DNA from: Massilicoli timonensis | GTDB taxonomy: Bacteria > Bacillota_I > Bacilli_A > Erysipelotrichales > Erysipelotrichaceae | DNA: 32,000 bases | Assembly (NCBI RefSeq): GCF_900199515.1 | Contig: NZ_LT963433.1 | Location: forward strand, 60,001 to 92,000 | Direction: 5' to 3' | Part shown: piece after piece, positions 1,652 to 9,666 of the stretch | Position numbering within the stretch: the stretch's first letter is position 1 | Layout of the letters: each line of letters begins with the position of its first letter | Notes under the pieces: generated by a model | What the model was told of the DNA's origin: nothing | The model's input: only the letters and a program-made list of their open reading frames with translations | The model's database searches: none | Made by a program: the position numbers and the translations under genes

Positions 1652-2032
1652 CTATGCTTCGATTTCGCTCTTCCAAAGACCATGCAGATTGCAATATTCA
1701 TACACAGTGATCGGTCCATGATAATCTCCGATCGGGAATACCGCCTGCGGTTTGTCATCGGCGCTCAGGTTCACTCTTGCCACATGTCCATCATAAGCTA
1801 CCGCGATCCAAGTGATCCAGTGTTCCGGTGTCATCGGATGCTCAACATCCGCAACCTTGACCGAAACAACACCGTTTTCCACACTTGCGACCGGTACATG
1901 CTTTTCCACTGCCGCATCCGTTGTATTTGGTGTCAATTCTTCCATCGGTTTCCCACAGCAGAATACCGGAACCCCTTTATCAAATACTTTTTCCACTACA
2001 TTACCGCAAACTGAACATTTATATACTTTCAT
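1652..2032 (-). CDS. dfx: Desulfoferrodoxin (2Fe superoxide reductase)
   Basis: 126 aa. N-terminal desulforedoxin-like CSVCGN...CCGKPM, then SOR core (EKHVPV, HPMTPEHWITWI, EYCNLHGLW). RBS TAGGAGGATAAC before the ATG. Confidence 0.9.
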   Translation of the reverse strand: MKVYKCSVCGNVVEKVFDKGVPVFCCGKPMEELTPNTTDAAVEKHVPVASVENGVVSVKVADVEHPMTPEHWITWIAVAYDGHVARVNLSADDKPQAVFPIGDYHGPITVYEYCNLHGLWKSEIEA

Positions 2033-3205: not shown

Positions 3206-4087
3206 CTATTTCCCATATTTCCTATGACGATCGTGAATTGTCTGCTTTTCCATCAGGCTTGATTCATCCTCGATCTTTCTGACACAAAGCCGCAATACAT
3301 AATGATCCTCCCCTTTTACCGCGATTTCATCCATCAGTACATCCTCATAAATACGATCATCGATCCGCCAGCCATTCTTTGAAACCGCCTGCATCAACCG
3401 CTCATAGCAGCGATATGCCTGATCAAAGGAACCGACATGATAGGCGCAAAGATAAGTACCGGCCTCCCTGATCGTATAAGAAAGACGCTTCGGTCTATGA
3501 TTCATCAAGAAATAGACTTGTTCATAGCATCCATATCCCTTTTTCTCGATTGCTTCCCGTTTCATGCTGGCACCGATGCCGTAAGGTGAACAAAAACTGC
3601 CGCTCTTGCTTTTTATGATCAATTCGCTGATCTGTTTAGCAAGCGTATAATGATCATAAGCAGACAAAGGAGCCGCATATAAATATTGCTTCGGAAATGA
3701 CATAATCTGTATTTCTTCTACATTGATCGACAGTGCTTCTTCGATCACGCGCATCTGCTCATTGACCCATAATTTCATTTCTTTTAATCTGCGGATATGC
3801 GCATCCAACAGCTGGTTTTCTTCCTTTAACAAAGCGAGAAAGCGCTTCGGATCACGATTATCTAAATAGGCTTTGATCTCTTTCAGCGGCATGTTTAATT
3901 CTTTCAACAGTTCGATCACATGAAAAAGATCGATTTGGGAAATCGAATAACAGCGATATCCGTTTTCCTTTACAAGCTCAGGCTGAAACAAGCCGATCTC
4001 ATCATAATGAAACAGCGTGTGTTTGGTCGTTCCGACCGTTTTGGCAAATTCGCCGCATGACAGATAACGATCATTTTCCGGTTTCAT
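3206..4087 (-). CDS. MerR-family transcriptional activator with C-terminal GyrI-like effector-binding domain (BmrR-like)
   Basis: N-terminal HTH YLSCGEFAKTVGTTKHTLFHYDEIGLF...GYRCYS, a coiled-coil linker, then a ~150-aa C-terminal domain. Start set at the ATG preceded by GAGGTG (MKPEN...); the track ORF extends to a GTG at 4096. Divergent from a MATE pump. Confidence 0.85.
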   Translation of the reverse strand: MKPENDRYLSCGEFAKTVGTTKHTLFHYDEIGLFQPELVKENGYRCYSISQIDLFHVIELLKELNMPLKEIKAYLDNRDPKRFLALLKEENQLLDAHIRRLKEMKLWVNEQMRVIEEALSINVEEIQIMSFPKQYLYAAPLSAYDHYTLAKQISELIIKSKSGSFCSPYGIGASMKREAIEKKGYGCYEQVYFLMNHRPKRLSYTIREAGTYLCAYHVGSFDQAYRCYERLMQAVSKNGWRIDDRIYEDVLMDEIAVKGEDHYVLRLCVRKIEDESSLMEKQTIHDRHRKYGK

Positions 4088-4099
4088 TGTCATCACCTC

Positions 4100-4130: not shown

Positions 4131-4162
4131 AGCACATGTCGATATCGAAAGGAAGTGATCAA

Positions 4163-5491
4163 ATGAAAAATCATATTGCACAGGATTTTACCTTTCCTTC
4201 TTTGATGAGATTTGTTTTCCCGACGATCATCATGATGGTATTTATGTCCTTATACACGATCGTCGATGGAATCTTTGTATCAAGACTGCTCGGCAGCAAT
4301 GCCCTTTCTTCTTTGAATATCGTATATCCGATCCTCAGTGGAATCTTAGCCATCGGTATCATGTTGGGAACCGGCGGCAGTGCGATCATCGCCCGCAAGC
4401 TGGGAGAAAATAAAAAGCAAGAAGCTTATGAAAACTTTTCTTTGATCAGTGTGGCGGCACTTGTGATCAGCGCTGTGATTTGTTTGTTGATCGTCTTGTT
4501 TCTTGAACCGCTTTGCCGCATACTTGGAGCAAATGATTTATTATTGCAGGACAGCAAAACGTATCTGCTGATCATGGGCTGCTTTGCGCCGATTACGATG
4601 ATGCAGCTCATCTACCAGACCCTGTTTGTCACAGCATCAAAACCTGCTCTTGGTTTAAGTGTTACGATCATTGGCGGTATCAGCAATATGGTATTGGATT
4701 ATGTATTTATGGGACCGATGCAGATGGGGATTGCGGGAGCGGCATTGGCCACCGGTATCGGTCAGCTCATTCCGGTGATCGTCGGTTCTGTTTTCTTCTT
4801 TACCAATCATAACGGTTTACATTATGTGCTGCCGAAGTGGAATGGACGCGTGCTGTTTGAAAGCTGTACAAATGGTTCCAGTGAAATGGTCAGCAATCTT
4901 TCCAATGCCGTGATCACATATCTGTTCAACCTGATCATGATGCGGCTGTTAAAAGAAAACGGGGTTGCCGCAATTACCATCGTACTGTACGCCCAGTTTT
5001 TATTTAATGGACTGTATCTTGGTTTCTCGATGGGAGTCGCACCGATTATCAGCTATCATTACGGCGCCCAAAACAGCGATGTCCTGCGCCGGCTTTATCG
5101 GATCTGCATGCGCTTCATCATCGGCAGTTCGATCGTCGTCGTATTGATTTCGATGTTCTGTGCTTCAGCTTTGATCACCATTTTTACCACGCCGCAGGAT
5201 CCGACTCATGATATTGCGCTGCATGGTTTTTATCTGTTTGCGATCAATTTCCTGTTTGCGGGCATCAATATTTTTGCTTCTGCTTTATTTACCGCTTTCT
5301 CCAATGGAAAAGTATCAGCCATCATCTCTTTCTTACGCACCTTTGTCATCATTGTCGCATGCGTCTTGATCTTGCCATCTCTCATCGGTGTGGATGGTGT
5401 ATGGCTTTCGATTCCTTTGGCTGAGCTGCTTACTTTATTTGTATCTTTGTTATATTTGCGTCTGTTCAAAGACATTTATCAATATGGATAA
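4163..5491 (+). CDS. MATE-family multidrug efflux transporter
   Basis: ~442 aa, 12 hydrophobic segments. N-terminus FTFPSLMRFVFPTIIMMVFMSLYTIVDGIFVSR is typical of MATE. Start moved to the ATG at 4163 (MKNH...), which follows GAAAGGAAG and lies downstream of the predicted -10. Confidence 0.9.
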   Translation: MKNHIAQDFTFPSLMRFVFPTIIMMVFMSLYTIVDGIFVSRLLGSNALSSLNIVYPILSGILAIGIMLGTGGSAIIARKLGENKKQEAYENFSLISVAALVISAVICLLIVLFLEPLCRILGANDLLLQDSKTYLLIMGCFAPITMMQLIYQTLFVTASKPALGLSVTIIGGISNMVLDYVFMGPMQMGIAGAALATGIGQLIPVIVGSVFFFTNHNGLHYVLPKWNGRVLFESCTNGSSEMVSNLSNAVITYLFNLIMMRLLKENGVAAITIVLYAQFLFNGLYLGFSMGVAPIISYHYGAQNSDVLRRLYRICMRFIIGSSIVVVLISMFCASALITIFTTPQDPTHDIALHGFYLFAINFLFAGINIFASALFTAFSNGKVSAIISFLRTFVIIVACVLILPSLIGVDGVWLSIPLAELLTLFVSLLYLRLFKDIYQYG

Positions 5492-5636: not shown

Positions 5637-6788
5637 TTATGCTTCTGTTAATCGTGCATCGATATCTGCAATTTCTTTTTCCAGTTCTTCAATAAACGCC
5701 TTTTTATCTTCAATGGCTTCTTCCATCTCATCGATCGCCCGCTGACCAAGCAATCCGACCATATCCTGCTTCATGTGTTCGATCTGGCGCTTCTGATTTT
5801 GGATCAGTTCTGCTTTGCGGTTTCGTATCTCTTGCATGTGTTGTAACCAGTTCGCATGCTTTTCTTCATTCCAAGCCTTCAATCCCGCAAAATAATCATC
5901 CATGATGGAACGGAATACTTTCCATACCTGATCTTCTTTTTCTTTTCCGCAAGAGCCAACCGCTTTCCATTTGACGCCAAGCTCTTTCATCGCCGCTGTA
6001 TGTTCCTTCGTATATTCCTTTGTATCGGCAATGGCTTTCGCCTGTGCGATCAGCGCCTGTTTCGCTTCGTATTTTTGATGCTGCTCCTCATGAAGTTCAT
6101 CGTAATGTGCATTTCTTCTGTCATAGAACTGCTGGCGGGCTTCCTTAAACGCATCCCACAATTCATCTTCATGTTCTCGGCCGGCACTGCCGACTGCCTT
6201 CCATTCTTCCATCAGCTCACGATATGTGTTGCTTGTTTTTTGCCACTGCTCAGAATCGGCTAACTCGCGTGCTTTGGCGATCAATTCTGTTTTTACGGCG
6301 CGCGCTTTTTCAAACTGTTCTTTTCGATTTGCCCAATAAGCACGCTTCAATTCATAAAACTGTTTACGAATTGCATGGAATGTTTCCCACAGCTCATCAT
6401 CTTTTTCTTTTCCGGCATTGCCTGCTTCTTTCCAGCGTGTCATCAGCGCATCCATTTCCTGAGCCGCTTTATTGAAATCCTGTGCTTCCAACAGTGCCTT
6501 TGCTTCCTCGATGATCGCTTCCTTTACTGCCTGGATGCTTTCATAACTCGCCCGCTTCTTTGCATAGTATGCATCCAGATATTGATCGAATTCTTCCATC
6601 AATTCATCTTCCAACACACTTTCCCAATAAGCGATGAGGTTCCATGCCTTTCTTAAATTTGCAACGGCACGCGCATCCGGTTCTTCTGCCGCCATCAGTT
6701 CTTTCGCTTCCGCAATCAATTCCTTGCGCAAAGCGATGTCCTGATCTAAATCACTCACTTCATACATTTCATCACGATCGTTATACAT
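5637..6788 (-). CDS. DUF349 repeat protein
   Basis: At least four ~75-aa repeats of the type W+x(A/V)Gxxxx(E/K)x(E/D)(D/E)xLWxxF+xxxxxFYxxR. Start set at MYNDRD (ATG 6788), which follows GGAGGATTATT. Confidence 0.8.
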   Translation of the reverse strand: MYNDRDEMYEVSDLDQDIALRKELIAEAKELMAAEEPDARAVANLRKAWNLIAYWESVLEDELMEEFDQYLDAYYAKKRASYESIQAVKEAIIEEAKALLEAQDFNKAAQEMDALMTRWKEAGNAGKEKDDELWETFHAIRKQFYELKRAYWANRKEQFEKARAVKTELIAKARELADSEQWQKTSNTYRELMEEWKAVGSAGREHEDELWDAFKEARQQFYDRRNAHYDELHEEQHQKYEAKQALIAQAKAIADTKEYTKEHTAAMKELGVKWKAVGSCGKEKEDQVWKVFRSIMDDYFAGLKAWNEEKHANWLQHMQEIRNRKAELIQNQKRQIEHMKQDMVGLLGQRAIDEMEEAIEDKKAFIEELEKEIADIDARLTEA

Positions 6789-7071
6789 AATAATCCTCCA
6801 ATTATTCATAAATCCTTTCTTATGAATCTTCACAATATAGATTTTACATCATATTGAAAGAAAAATCATTCATAATTTACAGTTTTTATCCTTTTTTTGT
6901 TTTTTATTGCTGTAAATTCGTAAATTGCCCCCGCTTTTTTGTATAAATACATACCAGCCAAGGTTTGAACAAAACAGGATCAAGAAGAATGGTTCTTGAA
7001 ACGATGTACTTTTACTGACACACCTTTTCCCTGCAACAGGCAGGATAAAAGGATCTGCTCTCTTTTCCCCA

Positions 7072-7098
7072 AAAGAAAAAAGGCTGATTCCCAGCCTC
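7072..7098 (-). terminator. Rho-independent terminator of the hydrogenase-fusion operon
   Basis: AGGCTG (7081-7086) / CAGCCT (7092-7097) with a 5-nt loop. On the minus strand it is followed by TTTTTTCTTTT. Confidence 0.65.
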
Positions 7099-7106
7099 TT
7101 TCTATC

Positions 7107-9155
7107 TTAGTAGTTTGTTGATTTTCTTTCAAAGTAAGCGCGTGAGTATCCGCAAGTCGGGCATACTTCCGGTGCTTCTTTGCCAAAGTGCAGGTGTCCG
7201 CACTGACGGCACATCCAGAAGATCTCTCCGTTTTCGTTAAATACTTCACCTTTTTTCAGACGATCCAACAATGTGCGATAGCGTTCTTCATGTGCTTTTT
7301 CCACACCGGCAACCAGATCGAATTTCTTTGCCAGTTCTTCAAAGCCTTCTTCGCGTGCTTCCTGCGCCATACGCTTATACATATCAGTCCATTCATCGTT
7401 TTCGCCCTGAGCTGCCGTTTCTAAGTTTGCGGCAGTATCACCGATGCCATGGAATTCTGAATACCACATTTTCGCATGCTGCGATTCCTGTTCAGAGGTT
7501 TCCATAAAGATCGCCGCGATCTGTTCGTAACCTTCCTGTGCCGCCTTCTGTGCGAAATATTTGTATTTATTTCTTGCCTGACTTTCACCGGCAAATGCTT
7601 CCATCAGGTTCTTTTCTGTTTTTGTACCTGCATATTTGCTTGCGCCTGCCGGTTTTGCTTCTACGATTTCTTCAAACTGGGAAGCCGGAACATGGCATAA
7701 CGGACAAGTAAAATCAGCCGGAAGCGCTTCTCCTTCATAAACATAACCACATACTTTACACTTAAATTTCTTCATTTTCTGTACCTTTCCTTTCTTTAAG
7801 TCGCCTGAGCGATCCACATAAGTGGTGTGTAATATTCGTTTCGCCAAATCGCTGAGCGGTTTTGCGTAAAACGTTTCGTAAATCTGTATGATCTCAGGAT
7901 TGTCATGCGAACAGCGAATCGTCATCGCCTCATCCCGATCATACAACGCCTGCATGCGTTTTGCATGCACATTTTCCTGCAATAATGCTTCTTTCGGTTG
8001 ACCGCCGCCGCCAATACAGCCGCCCGGACAAGTCATGACCTCGATAAAATCATACCGCACTTCTTTTGCTTTTAATTTCTGCAATACCTGTTTGGCATTT
8101 GCCGTGCCATAGATGACCGCATAGCTCAACGGGATACCGGCGATCTCTACACTGCCGGCTTTTACACCATCTAAACCGCGCACCGGCTCATAATGCAGTA
8201 AATCAGCCGGTGGGTTATTTCCGGTAATCAGATAATAAGCCGTACGTAATGCGGCTTCCATAACACCGCCGCTGTTGCCGAATAAAACGCCTGCCCCTGA
8301 CGCATCTGACATTAACGCATCATAGGACGCATCCTCCAGTGCTTCGAAAGCGATGTTTTCTTCCTTTGCCCATCGCGCCAATTCTCTTGCCGTCATGACA
8401 TAGTCCATATCGCGCAGATCTTCTAATCCCAGATAATCCTGCGCCGCATGCATTTCTTCACGCTTGATCTCAAACTTTTTCGCCGTACACGGCGTCAATG
8501 CGACATTGACGATACGTTTTGGATCGATATTTCGATACTTGGCAAAATAAGTTTTGATCGTTGGTCCCTGCATGGAAATCGGACTTTTTGCCGATGATAG
8601 ATTTGCGAGCATCGATGGCTCATAGGTTTCAACAAATTTGACCCATGCCGGGCAGCAGCTCGTAAACTGCGGCAGGACACCGCCGTTTTGAATGCGCTCT
8701 ACTAATTCGCTCGCTTCTTCCATGATCGTAAGATCGGCAGCGAAATTGGTATCCAGCACATAGTCAAATCCCAGTTTGCGCAGCAATGCCACCATCTTTC
8801 CTTCTACAAAGGCGCCGCTTTCCATGCCAAACGCCTCGCCCAAGGCAGCTCTGACAGCCGGTGAAGTGGATACGATCACGATTTGATTCGGATCTTTCAG
8901 CGCTTCTTTGATGCCATTTGTATCATCTCTTTCCATGATACTGTCTACCGGACAGACATTGGCGCACTGTCCGCAGTAAATACAAATGGCCCGATCACCG
9001 GTTTCCTCCAGCGAATATGTGCCGTGTACTGCAATTTGTTTTTCACAGACCTCTTTACACATACCGCAGCGAATACATTTTTCTTCAACTCTTACGATCG
9101 CCGGATTATCGGTATCGATCGCAACTCTGACGCTCAATGGTTCATGTCTGCTCAT
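7107..9155 (-). CDS. [FeFe]-hydrogenase (2x[4Fe-4S] + H-cluster domain) fused in-frame to rubredoxin and rubrerythrin domains
   Basis: Ferredoxin motifs [11 protein letters not shown] and [13 protein letters not shown]-cluster signatures [34 protein letters not shown]. Rubredoxin CKVCGY...CPLC. Diiron ferritin-like ligands [26 protein letters not shown]. Terminal CRQCGH...CPTCG. Start set at MSRHEPL (ATG 9155) after AAGGAG; the track ORF's earlier ATG lies inside the upstream gene. Confidence 0.9.
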
Positions 9156-9156
9156 C

Positions 9157-9546
9157 TCATTCTCCTTTTTCCGCTTTGCGGCATTCTTCACAAATCCCAT
9201 AAAACTCGATTGAATGTCCTTCAATCAAAAAACCGTTTACCTGCTCTACATCTTCCATGTGCGCCTGATAAGGGAATGGTGCATCGATTACCTTGCCACA
9301 GATACGGCAGCGCAGATGATAATGAGGAGGATTTTTTAATTCATAGTGCATTTCCGAATCATTTACCGGCACCTTCATGATCGTACCTTCTTCGCTCTCT
9401 TGATTTAAGATACGAAAGACGGTTGCCTTGCTGATCGTCGGATAATCGGCGCGCACATACGCATAGACCTGTGAGGCAGTCGGATGATTGTGCATCTTCT
9501 TTAAGGCGTTCATAACGATCTGTCTTTGTAATGTGTTACGCTTCAT
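9157..9546 (-). CDS. Fur-family metalloregulator, PerR-like
   Basis: Winged-helix N-terminus, [11 protein letters not shown] and CEEC (two CxxC pairs). ATG 9546 follows AAGGAGG plus 6 nt. The TGA stop ends 1 nt before the hydrogenase-fusion ATG. Confidence 0.8.
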
Positions 9547-9560
9547 ATACAACCTCCTTA

Positions 9561-9610
9561 TTGATACTCATTATCAATTACTATTATAATTAAATCACTT
9601 TTTTTGTCAA
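9561..9610 (-). promoter_or_regulatory. Sigma-70-type promoter with an overlapping Fur-family 7-1-7 operator
   Basis: Read on the minus strand: TTGACA (9605-9610), 16 nt, TATAAT (9583-9588). Then TTGATAATGAGTATCAA (9561-9577), whose core TGATAAT-G-AGTATCA differs at one position from the TGATAATnATTATCA Fur-box 7-1-7 motif. It sits between the -10 and the RBS. Confidence 0.6.
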
Positions 9611-9611
9611 G

Positions 9612-9666
9612 ATGATCCTGTTCTTTTTTTACAATTTTTATGATCCTGTTCTTTTTTTACAATTTT
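9612..9666. repeat. Perfect 27-bp direct repeat x2 separated by 1 nt (28-bp period)
   Basis: ATGATCCTGTTCTTTTTTTACAATTTT occurs at 9612-9638 and again at 9640-9666, directly upstream of the -35 of the Fur-like gene. Confidence 0.9.

Follow-up and report, generated by a model that had tools for sequence, protein, structure and literature searches.

We analysed a stretch of 32,000 nt from the gut anaerobe Massilicoli timonensis (Erysipelotrichaceae; NZ_LT963433.1, 60,001–92,000), hereafter called the window, and all coordinates below are window positions. Two adjacent genes on its minus strand form a predicted two-gene operon: one for a PerR-like regulator of the Fur family, and one for HydR, a single polypeptide in which an [FeFe] hydrogenase (HydA) is fused to a rubredoxin (Rd) and a rubrerythrin (Rbr). 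We consider it probable that this perR-hydR operon encodes an H2-dependent H2O2 reductase under the control of an autoregulated PerR-like repressor, with derepression of the operon by peroxide. Judged by its sequence, the window gene is a bona fide HydR; its function has already been established for the HydR of Clostridium perfringens and is hence not new. What goes beyond the published enzyme is the breadth of its distribution, the link to PerR-type regulators, and a conserved internal start signal within the gene.

The hydR gene occupies positions 9155..7107 on the minus strand (ATG at 9155, TAA at 7109–7107) and encodes a HydA(M2)-Rd-Rbr fusion of 682 aa. An earlier sequence-only reading of this DNA had claimed an uninterrupted open reading frame (ORF) of 682 codons with this order of domains. 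The ORF was indeed free of stops, Pfam, NCBIfam and the invariant ligands agreed on the domains, and the borders proposed earlier lay within a few codons of the hidden Markov model borders. An alternative upstream TTG at 9224 would extend the ORF; homologues uniformly begin at the ATG, and M1 is invariant. Pfam assigned two Fer4 domains (aa 20–75), Fe_hyd_lg_C (aa 92–384, E = 2e-89), Fe_hyd_SSU (aa 396–449), Rubrerythrin (aa 515–630, E = 5e-21) and RUBY_RBDX (aa 647–676, plus a second stretch). The rubredoxin at aa 461–497 gave a weak signal in Pfam, and its Cys 466, 469, 484 and 487 were invariant across 53 homologues. Two NCBIfam models scored above their cut-offs, namely FeFe_hydrog_A (TIGR02512, [FeFe] hydrogenase group A) with 472.8 bits (cut-off 405.95), and the rubrerythrin equivalog NF045767 with 238.7 bits over residues 507–682 (cut-off 200).

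Read along the minus strand, the F-cluster domain (8931..9098) contains two [4Fe-4S] motifs (Cys 27, 30, 33, 37 and Cys 58, 61, 64, 68, all invariant), and the H-domain (7809..8882), which comprises Fe_hyd_lg_C and Fe_hyd_SSU, contains the motifs L1 (TSCCPAW), L2 (TPCTAKKFE) and L3. These are followed by the rubredoxin domain (7665..7775), the diiron four-helix domain of the rubrerythrin (7254..7631, aa 509–634, with E524, E557, H560, E585, E588, E619 and H622) and its C-terminal rubredoxin-like Fe(Cys)4 domain (7110..7223, with Cys 649, 652, 665 and 668). Both ExxH pairs and the terminal CxxC...CxxC were found. In alignments of 11 and 53 homologues the three H-cluster motifs, the eight ferredoxin cysteines, both CxxC...CxxC sets and the seven diiron ligands were invariant. 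Relative to the Desulfovibrio vulgaris rubrerythrin (1RYT/1B71), the alignment lacked exactly 13 residues after G571, in the loop between helices B and C. An AlphaFold2 monomer model, used for domain and linker borders only, had a mean confidence (pLDDT) of 83.9, with confident domains and low-confidence linkers at residues 451–460, 500–503 and ~631–660. The public annotation of the species lists only fragments, namely two 'rubrerythrin' entries of 222 aa and 165 aa and one incomplete 'hydrogenase group A' (RefSeq entries WP_219718828.1, WP_245858031.1, WP_418289953.1; window 7110–7775), and no named full-length RefSeq entry was present in the cluster listing. Because only fragments are listed, the fusion would escape a name-based search.

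The enzyme known from experiment is CperHydR, the [FeFe] hydrogenase-rubrerythrin chimera of C. perfringens (CPF_1076), which contains an H-cluster, a pair of [4Fe-4S] clusters, two centres of the Fe(Cys)4 type and one diiron site, and which under H2 catalytically removes H2O2 (Taylor et al., J Am Chem Soc 2025, PMC11926857). CperHydR is extremely biased towards H2 oxidation, with essentially no H2 evolution current. This bias has been tied to a Thr/Ala variant of L2 that it has in common with CpII, the uptake-biased [FeFe] hydrogenase II of C. pasteurianum, and the absence of the 13-residue Rbr loop led the authors to argue for a homodimer (PMC11926857). Meyer 2007 and Calusinska 2010 had already catalogued the HydA-Rd-Rbr domain combination in their classifications. 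The intramolecular wire from H2 to H2O2 that the sequence-only reading had proposed has thus been shown experimentally for CperHydR, with which the window protein shares architecture, ligands and L2. The same publication means that, at the biochemical level, such fusions can no longer be called barely characterised, and that their novelty had been overestimated.

The C. perfringens HydR was reached through a second homology search, seeded with the low-GC Clostridium homologue L061, and a subsequent cluster look-up. The protein compared is therefore that of cluster P0202 (P0303 = ABG85712.1, strain SM101) and not the exact CPF_1076 entry. By BLASTP the window HydR was 57% identical to it (73% positives, 806 bits), and residues 1–682 were colinear with residues 1–696. 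Common to both are the domain order (two [4Fe-4S] clusters, H-domain, Rd, Rbr diiron domain, C-terminal Rd-like domain), an identical L2, the identical 13-residue deletion in the helix B–C loop, and an internal Shine-Dalgarno (SD) sequence with ATG at the HydA|Rd junction of the native DNA. The two differ in host class (Clostridia versus Erysipelotrichia), in length (696 versus 682 aa, the window protein having the shorter Rd-Rbr linker), and in gene neighbourhood, the window hydR being second in its operon whereas no PerR-like gene lies beside hydR in the C. perfringens locus examined.

CpII resembles the hydrogenase part in its M2 layout, with two [4Fe-4S] clusters and an H-domain, and in L2 (TPCTAKKYE versus TPCTAKKFE in the window), a likeness drawn from the printed motif and layout only. 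It differs in having neither Rd nor Rbr modules and in evolving H2 at low potential, which CperHydR does not. The C-terminal 174 aa of HydR aligned end to end with rubrerythrin 9FJ2 (178 aa, E = 8e-64) and with the D. vulgaris rubrerythrin (E = 2e-44), all diiron and Cys4 ligands being present, and the Rbr domain is of the short-loop type, like the Pyrococcus furiosus rubrerythrin (2HR5/1NNQ). In contrast to stand-alone rubrerythrins, that of HydR follows a hydrogenase and a further rubredoxin in the same chain, and where the former use a chain of NAD(P)H-rubredoxin oxidoreductase and rubredoxin, H2 takes its place as the electron source. In this respect HydR is similar to the FrhAGB hydrogenase of Thermococcus onnurineus, which reportedly reduces rubredoxin with H2, so that H2 serves as reductant for a rubredoxin-dependent antioxidant chain. 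As described there, the archaeal system differs in being of the [NiFe] type and multi-subunit, and in consisting of separate proteins, without a fusion (PMC13333549).

By analogy, a CpII-like, uptake-biased hydrogenase module with its H-cluster and two [4Fe-4S] clusters would oxidise H2. The electrons would pass from the hydrogenase to the fused rubredoxin, on to the rubredoxin-like centre of Rbr and finally to the diiron site, where H2O2 would be reduced to water. The active form would most likely be a domain-swapped homodimer, because the Rbr domain is without the 13-residue loop needed to close the four-helix bundle within one chain.

The fusion is both reproducible and widespread. Independent assemblies in NCBI, ENA and Logan encode the identical 682-aa protein on 59 contigs. 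Homologue clusters of 680–700 aa numbered more than 120, and the best 120 clusters were all 680–750 aa long, matched at 99–100% coverage, and had hydrogenase and rubrerythrin Pfam domains in each case. A genome scan with one genome per species gave at least 563 relatives, and neither M. timonensis nor C. perfringens was among the matches listed. The best 80 of these 563 included ~65 full-length fusions, with hosts in Erysipelotrichaceae, Oscillospiraceae, Lachnospiraceae, Phascolarctobacterium, Selenomonadaceae, Sutterella, Burkholderiaceae, Fusobacteria and Spirochaetales. From the 59 contigs and the hundreds of relatives it follows that the fusion is not an assembly artefact, and that orthologues are not always split into separate genes, a pattern that the sequence-only reading had held up against its own proposal. 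Architectural variants were noted as well (L068–L075; P0036 and L061; L076–L080; L087). These include HydA-Rd proteins without Rbr (L068–L075) in Phascolarctobacterium/Acidaminococcaceae, Clostridium moutaii and Fusicatenibacter; HydR variants with two rubredoxins (734–746 aa) and HydA-only relatives also exist.

Upstream of hydR, the perR-like gene (9546..9157, minus strand; ribosome-binding site (RBS) AAGGAGG at 9559–9553, stop TGA at 9159–9157) encodes 129 aa, and an exact protein look-up found the product identical to WP_102265963.1, a 'Fur family transcriptional regulator' of M. timonensis. As the sequence-only reading had stated, this Fur-family gene (PF01475, E = 7e-23) ends 1 nt before the fusion's start codon, the TGA being followed by a single G and then the hydR ATG. 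Translational coupling from perR to hydR is plausible but no more than an inference, since hydR has an SD sequence of its own, AAAGGAG, within the final perR codons. The predicted sigma-70-type promoter (9610..9583, minus strand) matches the consensus at 12 of 12 positions, with TTGACA at 9610–9605, a 16-nt spacer and TATAAT at 9588–9583. The candidate operator, ATTGATAatgagTATCAAT (9578..9560, minus strand), consists of perfect 7-nt arms, ATTGATA-N5-TATCAAT, and begins 4 nt past the -10 hexamer, so that it overlaps the expected transcription start. Written as a 7-1-7 box, TGATAATGAGTATCA, it has one mismatch from the Fur consensus TGATAATNATTATCA and is the sole such site in the 32 kb, in good agreement with the strong promoter and near-consensus Fur-family box reported earlier. 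Boxes of the 7-1-7 type were found at the equivalent position in relatives (L084, TGATAATCATTATCA; L083, TAGTAATAATTACTA; L001, TAGTAATCATTATCA), and hydR loci without an adjacent regulator still hold such boxes between the -10 hexamer and the RBS (L084, L083, L078 with TTAGAATCATTCTAA, L051 and L058).

Several features liken the regulator to PerR within the Fur family, as had been proposed from sequence. Its best match in the PDB was Bacillus subtilis PerR (2FE3, 32% identity), and its top NCBIfam models were PerR models, albeit below cut-off (NF052545, 90.3 bits, cut-off 180; NF047406, 81.9 bits, cut-off 200), while the Fur equivalog NF051892 reached 64.1 bits against a cut-off of 220, which it did not pass, and other Fur models scored lower still. 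A Cys4 zinc site is kept, C80, C83, C119 and C122 aligning with C96, C99, C136 and C139 of B. subtilis PerR. At the regulatory site (positions 37, 85, 91, 93 and 104 in B. subtilis numbering) the residues are H, E, H, H and D, four of the five being identical to PerR. Asp104 is the residue tied to the peroxide sensitivity of PerR. The protein resembles B. subtilis PerR in its Fur-family fold, its Cys4 zinc site and these four residues of the His/Asp regulatory site, and differs in having Glu for D85 and, in its operator, half-sites of the Fur-like form TGATAAT instead of TTATAAT.

The neighbourhood recurs. A Fur-family gene lies 0–75 nt upstream of hydR on the same strand in 21 of the ~62 loci with enough upstream sequence; beyond these, two loci have one intervening gene, L066 retains the 3' end of a Fur-family gene at its contig edge, and in one locus the regulator gene follows hydR downstream. 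All of these regulators keep the PerR-type site. They fall into two subfamilies, one window-like ('HPTA...'; L001, L039, L041, L050, L062, L066) and the other ('MTKY...HMTAEQIF...LATVYNNLNRL') from Oscillospiraceae and Lachnospiraceae. Loci of the second subfamily include L003, L005, L006, L010–L012, L014, L016, L022, L023, L027 and L040, with the operator ~410–430 nt upstream of hydR. The second-subfamily regulators are always preceded by the near-invariant operator TTAGAATNATTCTAA, two mismatches from the PerR consensus, which stands directly past the -10 hexamer in 17–19 loci and hardly occurs anywhere else in 744 kb of locus sequence.

This arrangement has parallels in known PerR systems. 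The perR-rbr(-rdl/-roo) operons of Desulfovibrio and Geobacter are preceded by palindromic boxes (Rodionov et al. 2004, PMC545781), and in the PerR regulon of C. acetobutylicum the boxes lie downstream of the -10 element (PMC5050335). The window operon shares with the former the order of genes, regulator first and rubrerythrin-type peroxidase second, and with both a palindromic box at or just past the -10 element; it differs from the known PerR systems in that the regulated peroxidase carries its own hydrogenase. Regulation, be it by PerR, operon or any regulator, goes unmentioned in the CperHydR paper (PMC11926857), and a literature search that did not extend to subscription journals found no report of a perR-hydR link. 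In the proposed circuit, transcription of both genes would start at the consensus promoter, and the metal-loaded PerR-like protein would repress it by binding the palindrome over the transcription start. Metal-catalysed oxidation of the repressor's His ligands by peroxide would render it inactive, so that both genes would be derepressed and the circuit autoregulated.

Within hydR itself, a candidate internal translation start was found at the HydA|Rd junction (7793..7773, minus strand). An SD-like sequence, AAAGGAAAGG (7793–7784), is followed 8 nt on by the in-frame ATG of Met461 (7775–7773), and the pair sits in the disordered linker marked by the pLDDT dip of the model. The 222-aa 'rubrerythrin' that RefSeq gives for the species corresponds exactly to residues 461–682 of the fusion, and Met461 is nearly invariant in the homologue alignments. 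We surveyed the junctions of L001–L066 and L081–L084, plus L086 (4360–4382). An in-frame ATG (GTG in two) stood 4–8 codons ahead of the first rubredoxin Cys in 66 of 66 HydA-Rd-Rbr genes from several phyla, and a core AGGAG or AGGAGG was present in 51 of 65, with a spacing of 7–12 nt (mode 8). The mean energy of the anti-SD duplex was -9.0 kcal/mol at the internal site, compared to -8.4 kcal/mol at the genes' own 5' starts and -2.8 kcal/mol at 1234 other internal ATGs. Resampling of synonymous codons gave a mean of -6.7 kcal/mol, and none of 500 replicates reached the observed mean. Taken singly, only 10 of 65 loci were significant in this test, as any codons for K-G-E spell out an SD in themselves; the weight accordingly rests on the aggregate result, on the cases in other reading frames, and on controls without Rbr. 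The SD is kept across other reading frames and residues (KGE, QGG, LGG, VKEE, KEEV), and the linker that bears it ranges in length between 11 and 53 aa, a pattern that points to selection on the nucleotides themselves. Met and SD were both missing in all eight HydA-Rd fusions without Rbr, and also at the extra rubredoxin copies of the double-Rd variants and in L067.

Natural alleles break at the same place. In native DNA of C. perfringens the junction has the sequence TTAGGAGGAGAAAAAATG (AGGAGG-N7-ATG), and many C. perfringens genomes have a HydA-only allele of 461 aa that ends right after 'LGGE', Rd-Rbr being missing exactly from the internal start. In M. timonensis, a split allele present on three contigs (L085 2805–2915, compared with window 7740–7850) has GGAAC in place of GGCGAC, which creates a TAA after 'DRSGT', 20 nt before the internal ATG, and yields hydA (452 aa) and rd-rbr (222 aa). 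The published CperHydR work used codon-optimised genes (PMC11926857), because of which an internal product would have been undetectable there, and no literature report of internal initiation in rubrerythrin fusions was found, the search again leaving subscription journals aside. We regard it as evenly balanced whether hydR yields two products, the 76-kDa HydA-Rd-Rbr fusion and a free 222-aa Rd-Rbr from the candidate internal start. If so, the short form could dimerise with itself into a conventional rubrerythrin fed by other reductants, or it could join a full-length chain in the domain-swapped Rbr bundle and thereby set the ratio of hydrogenase to peroxidase. Alternatively, the SD-ATG pair may be left over from the event that fused the genes, or it may act as a translational pause site.

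Other explanations of the enzyme were weighed against the proposed H2-dependent H2O2 reductase. The split allele on M. timonensis metagenome contigs and the 222-aa RefSeq entry might suggest that the fusion is an artefact of assembly or sequencing and that hydA and rd-rbr are in truth separate genes. Against this, the window ORF is intact, the fused product is found on 59 contigs and the split form on three, the same fusion is found at 99–100% coverage in hundreds of species, and the fused C. perfringens protein has been expressed and is active. We therefore rejected the artefact explanation for the window and give it next to no credence. The physiological reaction could also be a different one: its substrate might be O2, NO or an organic peroxide, or its Rd and Rbr modules might mainly protect or gate an uptake hydrogenase that uses another acceptor. 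The HydA-Rd fusions without Rbr show that a hydrogenase-Rd unit can serve other partners, and the authors of the CperHydR study left its in vivo role open and did not rule out other functions (PMC11926857). Such alternatives nevertheless appear very unlikely to us, given that H2-dependent catalytic removal of H2O2 was shown directly for CperHydR, that the Rbr diiron ligand set is complete and invariant in 53 homologues, and that hydR is linked to PerR-type regulator genes.

The open in vivo role is one of several points that weigh against a peroxide-controlled H2O2 reductase. CperHydR is itself O2-sensitive (PMC11926857), and no hydE/F/G maturase genes are present in the 32 kb. An adjacent perR is missing at the C. 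perfringens locus, as mentioned above, and also at the closest HydR relatives, L081–L084 (68–74% identity). The remaining points bear on the identity of the regulator and feed the main rival explanation, namely that it is an iron-sensing Fur and that hydR expression follows iron availability instead of oxidative stress. The regulator stayed under every NCBIfam PerR cut-off (90 versus 180), and position 85 is Glu instead of Asp, as in Fur proteins. Its box has three mismatches from the PerR consensus TTATAATNATTATAA, and is thus not of the PerR-box type in B. subtilis terms, and it fits the B. subtilis Fur consensus, with a single mismatch, better. The box also carries G2/C14, which marks Fur boxes in the discrimination of Fur, PerR and Zur boxes in B. 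subtilis, and L084 has a box ahead of hydR that is a perfect Fur consensus. On the other hand, the PerR models outscored the Fur models (90 and 82 versus 64 bits), B. subtilis PerR was the best PDB match, Asp is kept at position 104 where the aligned Campylobacter jejuni Fur has Glu, and in other lineages the boxes used by the regulators ahead of hydR are PerR-like. With a classical Fur repressor, moreover, an 18-Fe protein would be derepressed just when iron is scarce, which would make little physiological sense, and partly because of this we rate an iron-sensing Fur as unlikely, though less so than a different reaction of the enzyme, and retain the PerR-like repressor as the preferred reading.

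Further features of the locus concern the ends of the operon and its neighbours. Upstream, abutting the -35 hexamer, lies a tandem repeat (9612..9666, minus strand) of two perfect 27-nt copies, AAAATTGTAAAAAAAGAACAGGATCAT, in a 28-nt register. None would be expected by chance, the copies occur nowhere else in the window, and another M. timonensis assembly (L085) has them unchanged, while they are absent from the Erysipelotrichaceae relative L001. The repeat may serve as an A-tract resembling an UP element, or a second regulator may bind there. Downstream, a predicted intrinsic terminator (7071..7097, minus strand), AGGCTG-GGAAT-CAGCCT followed by TTTTTCTTTT, stands 10 nt past the hydR stop. 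Directly downstream of hydR is a DUF349 gene (5637–6833). The nearby dfx gene of the sequence-only reading was identified as a desulfoferrodoxin-type superoxide reductase gene (2032..1652, minus strand, 126 aa). Four unrelated genes lie between dfx and hydR; that interval includes a MerR-family regulator gene (3206–4096, minus strand) and, divergent from it, a MatE efflux transporter gene (4136–5491, plus strand). The dfx promoter region (2040–2110) shows a promoter-like pair, TTGATG...TATAAT, and a short inverted repeat, GCGATcatttgcATCGC. No Fur/PerR-type box was found at the dfx promoter, nor was there a second copy of the perR-hydR box in the 32 kb. A shared dfx/hydR regulon was rejected on these grounds, and dfx is probably controlled separately. 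The 32-kb window contained no Rfam families or tRNAs. In its positions 1–1650, which thus have neither an Rfam match nor a tRNA, no ORF exceeds 93 aa; this stretch may represent a decayed gene or one that runs past the window edge.

For the family as a whole, these results indicate that HydR is no clostridial curiosity but widespread in gut bacteria, among them Erysipelotrichaceae, Oscillospiraceae, Lachnospiraceae, Negativicutes, Sutterella, Fusobacteria and Spirochaetes. If the internal start is used, the stoichiometry, the dimer assembly and the published electrochemistry of the fusion need to be re-read. The PerR-type repressors and conserved operators at about a third of the hydR species sampled constitute the first regulatory evidence for this enzyme, and the link between hydR and its regulator supports an oxidative-stress role that the biochemical paper could only discuss. 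In that role, the HydR class would let strict anaerobes destroy H2O2 using their own fermentation H2.

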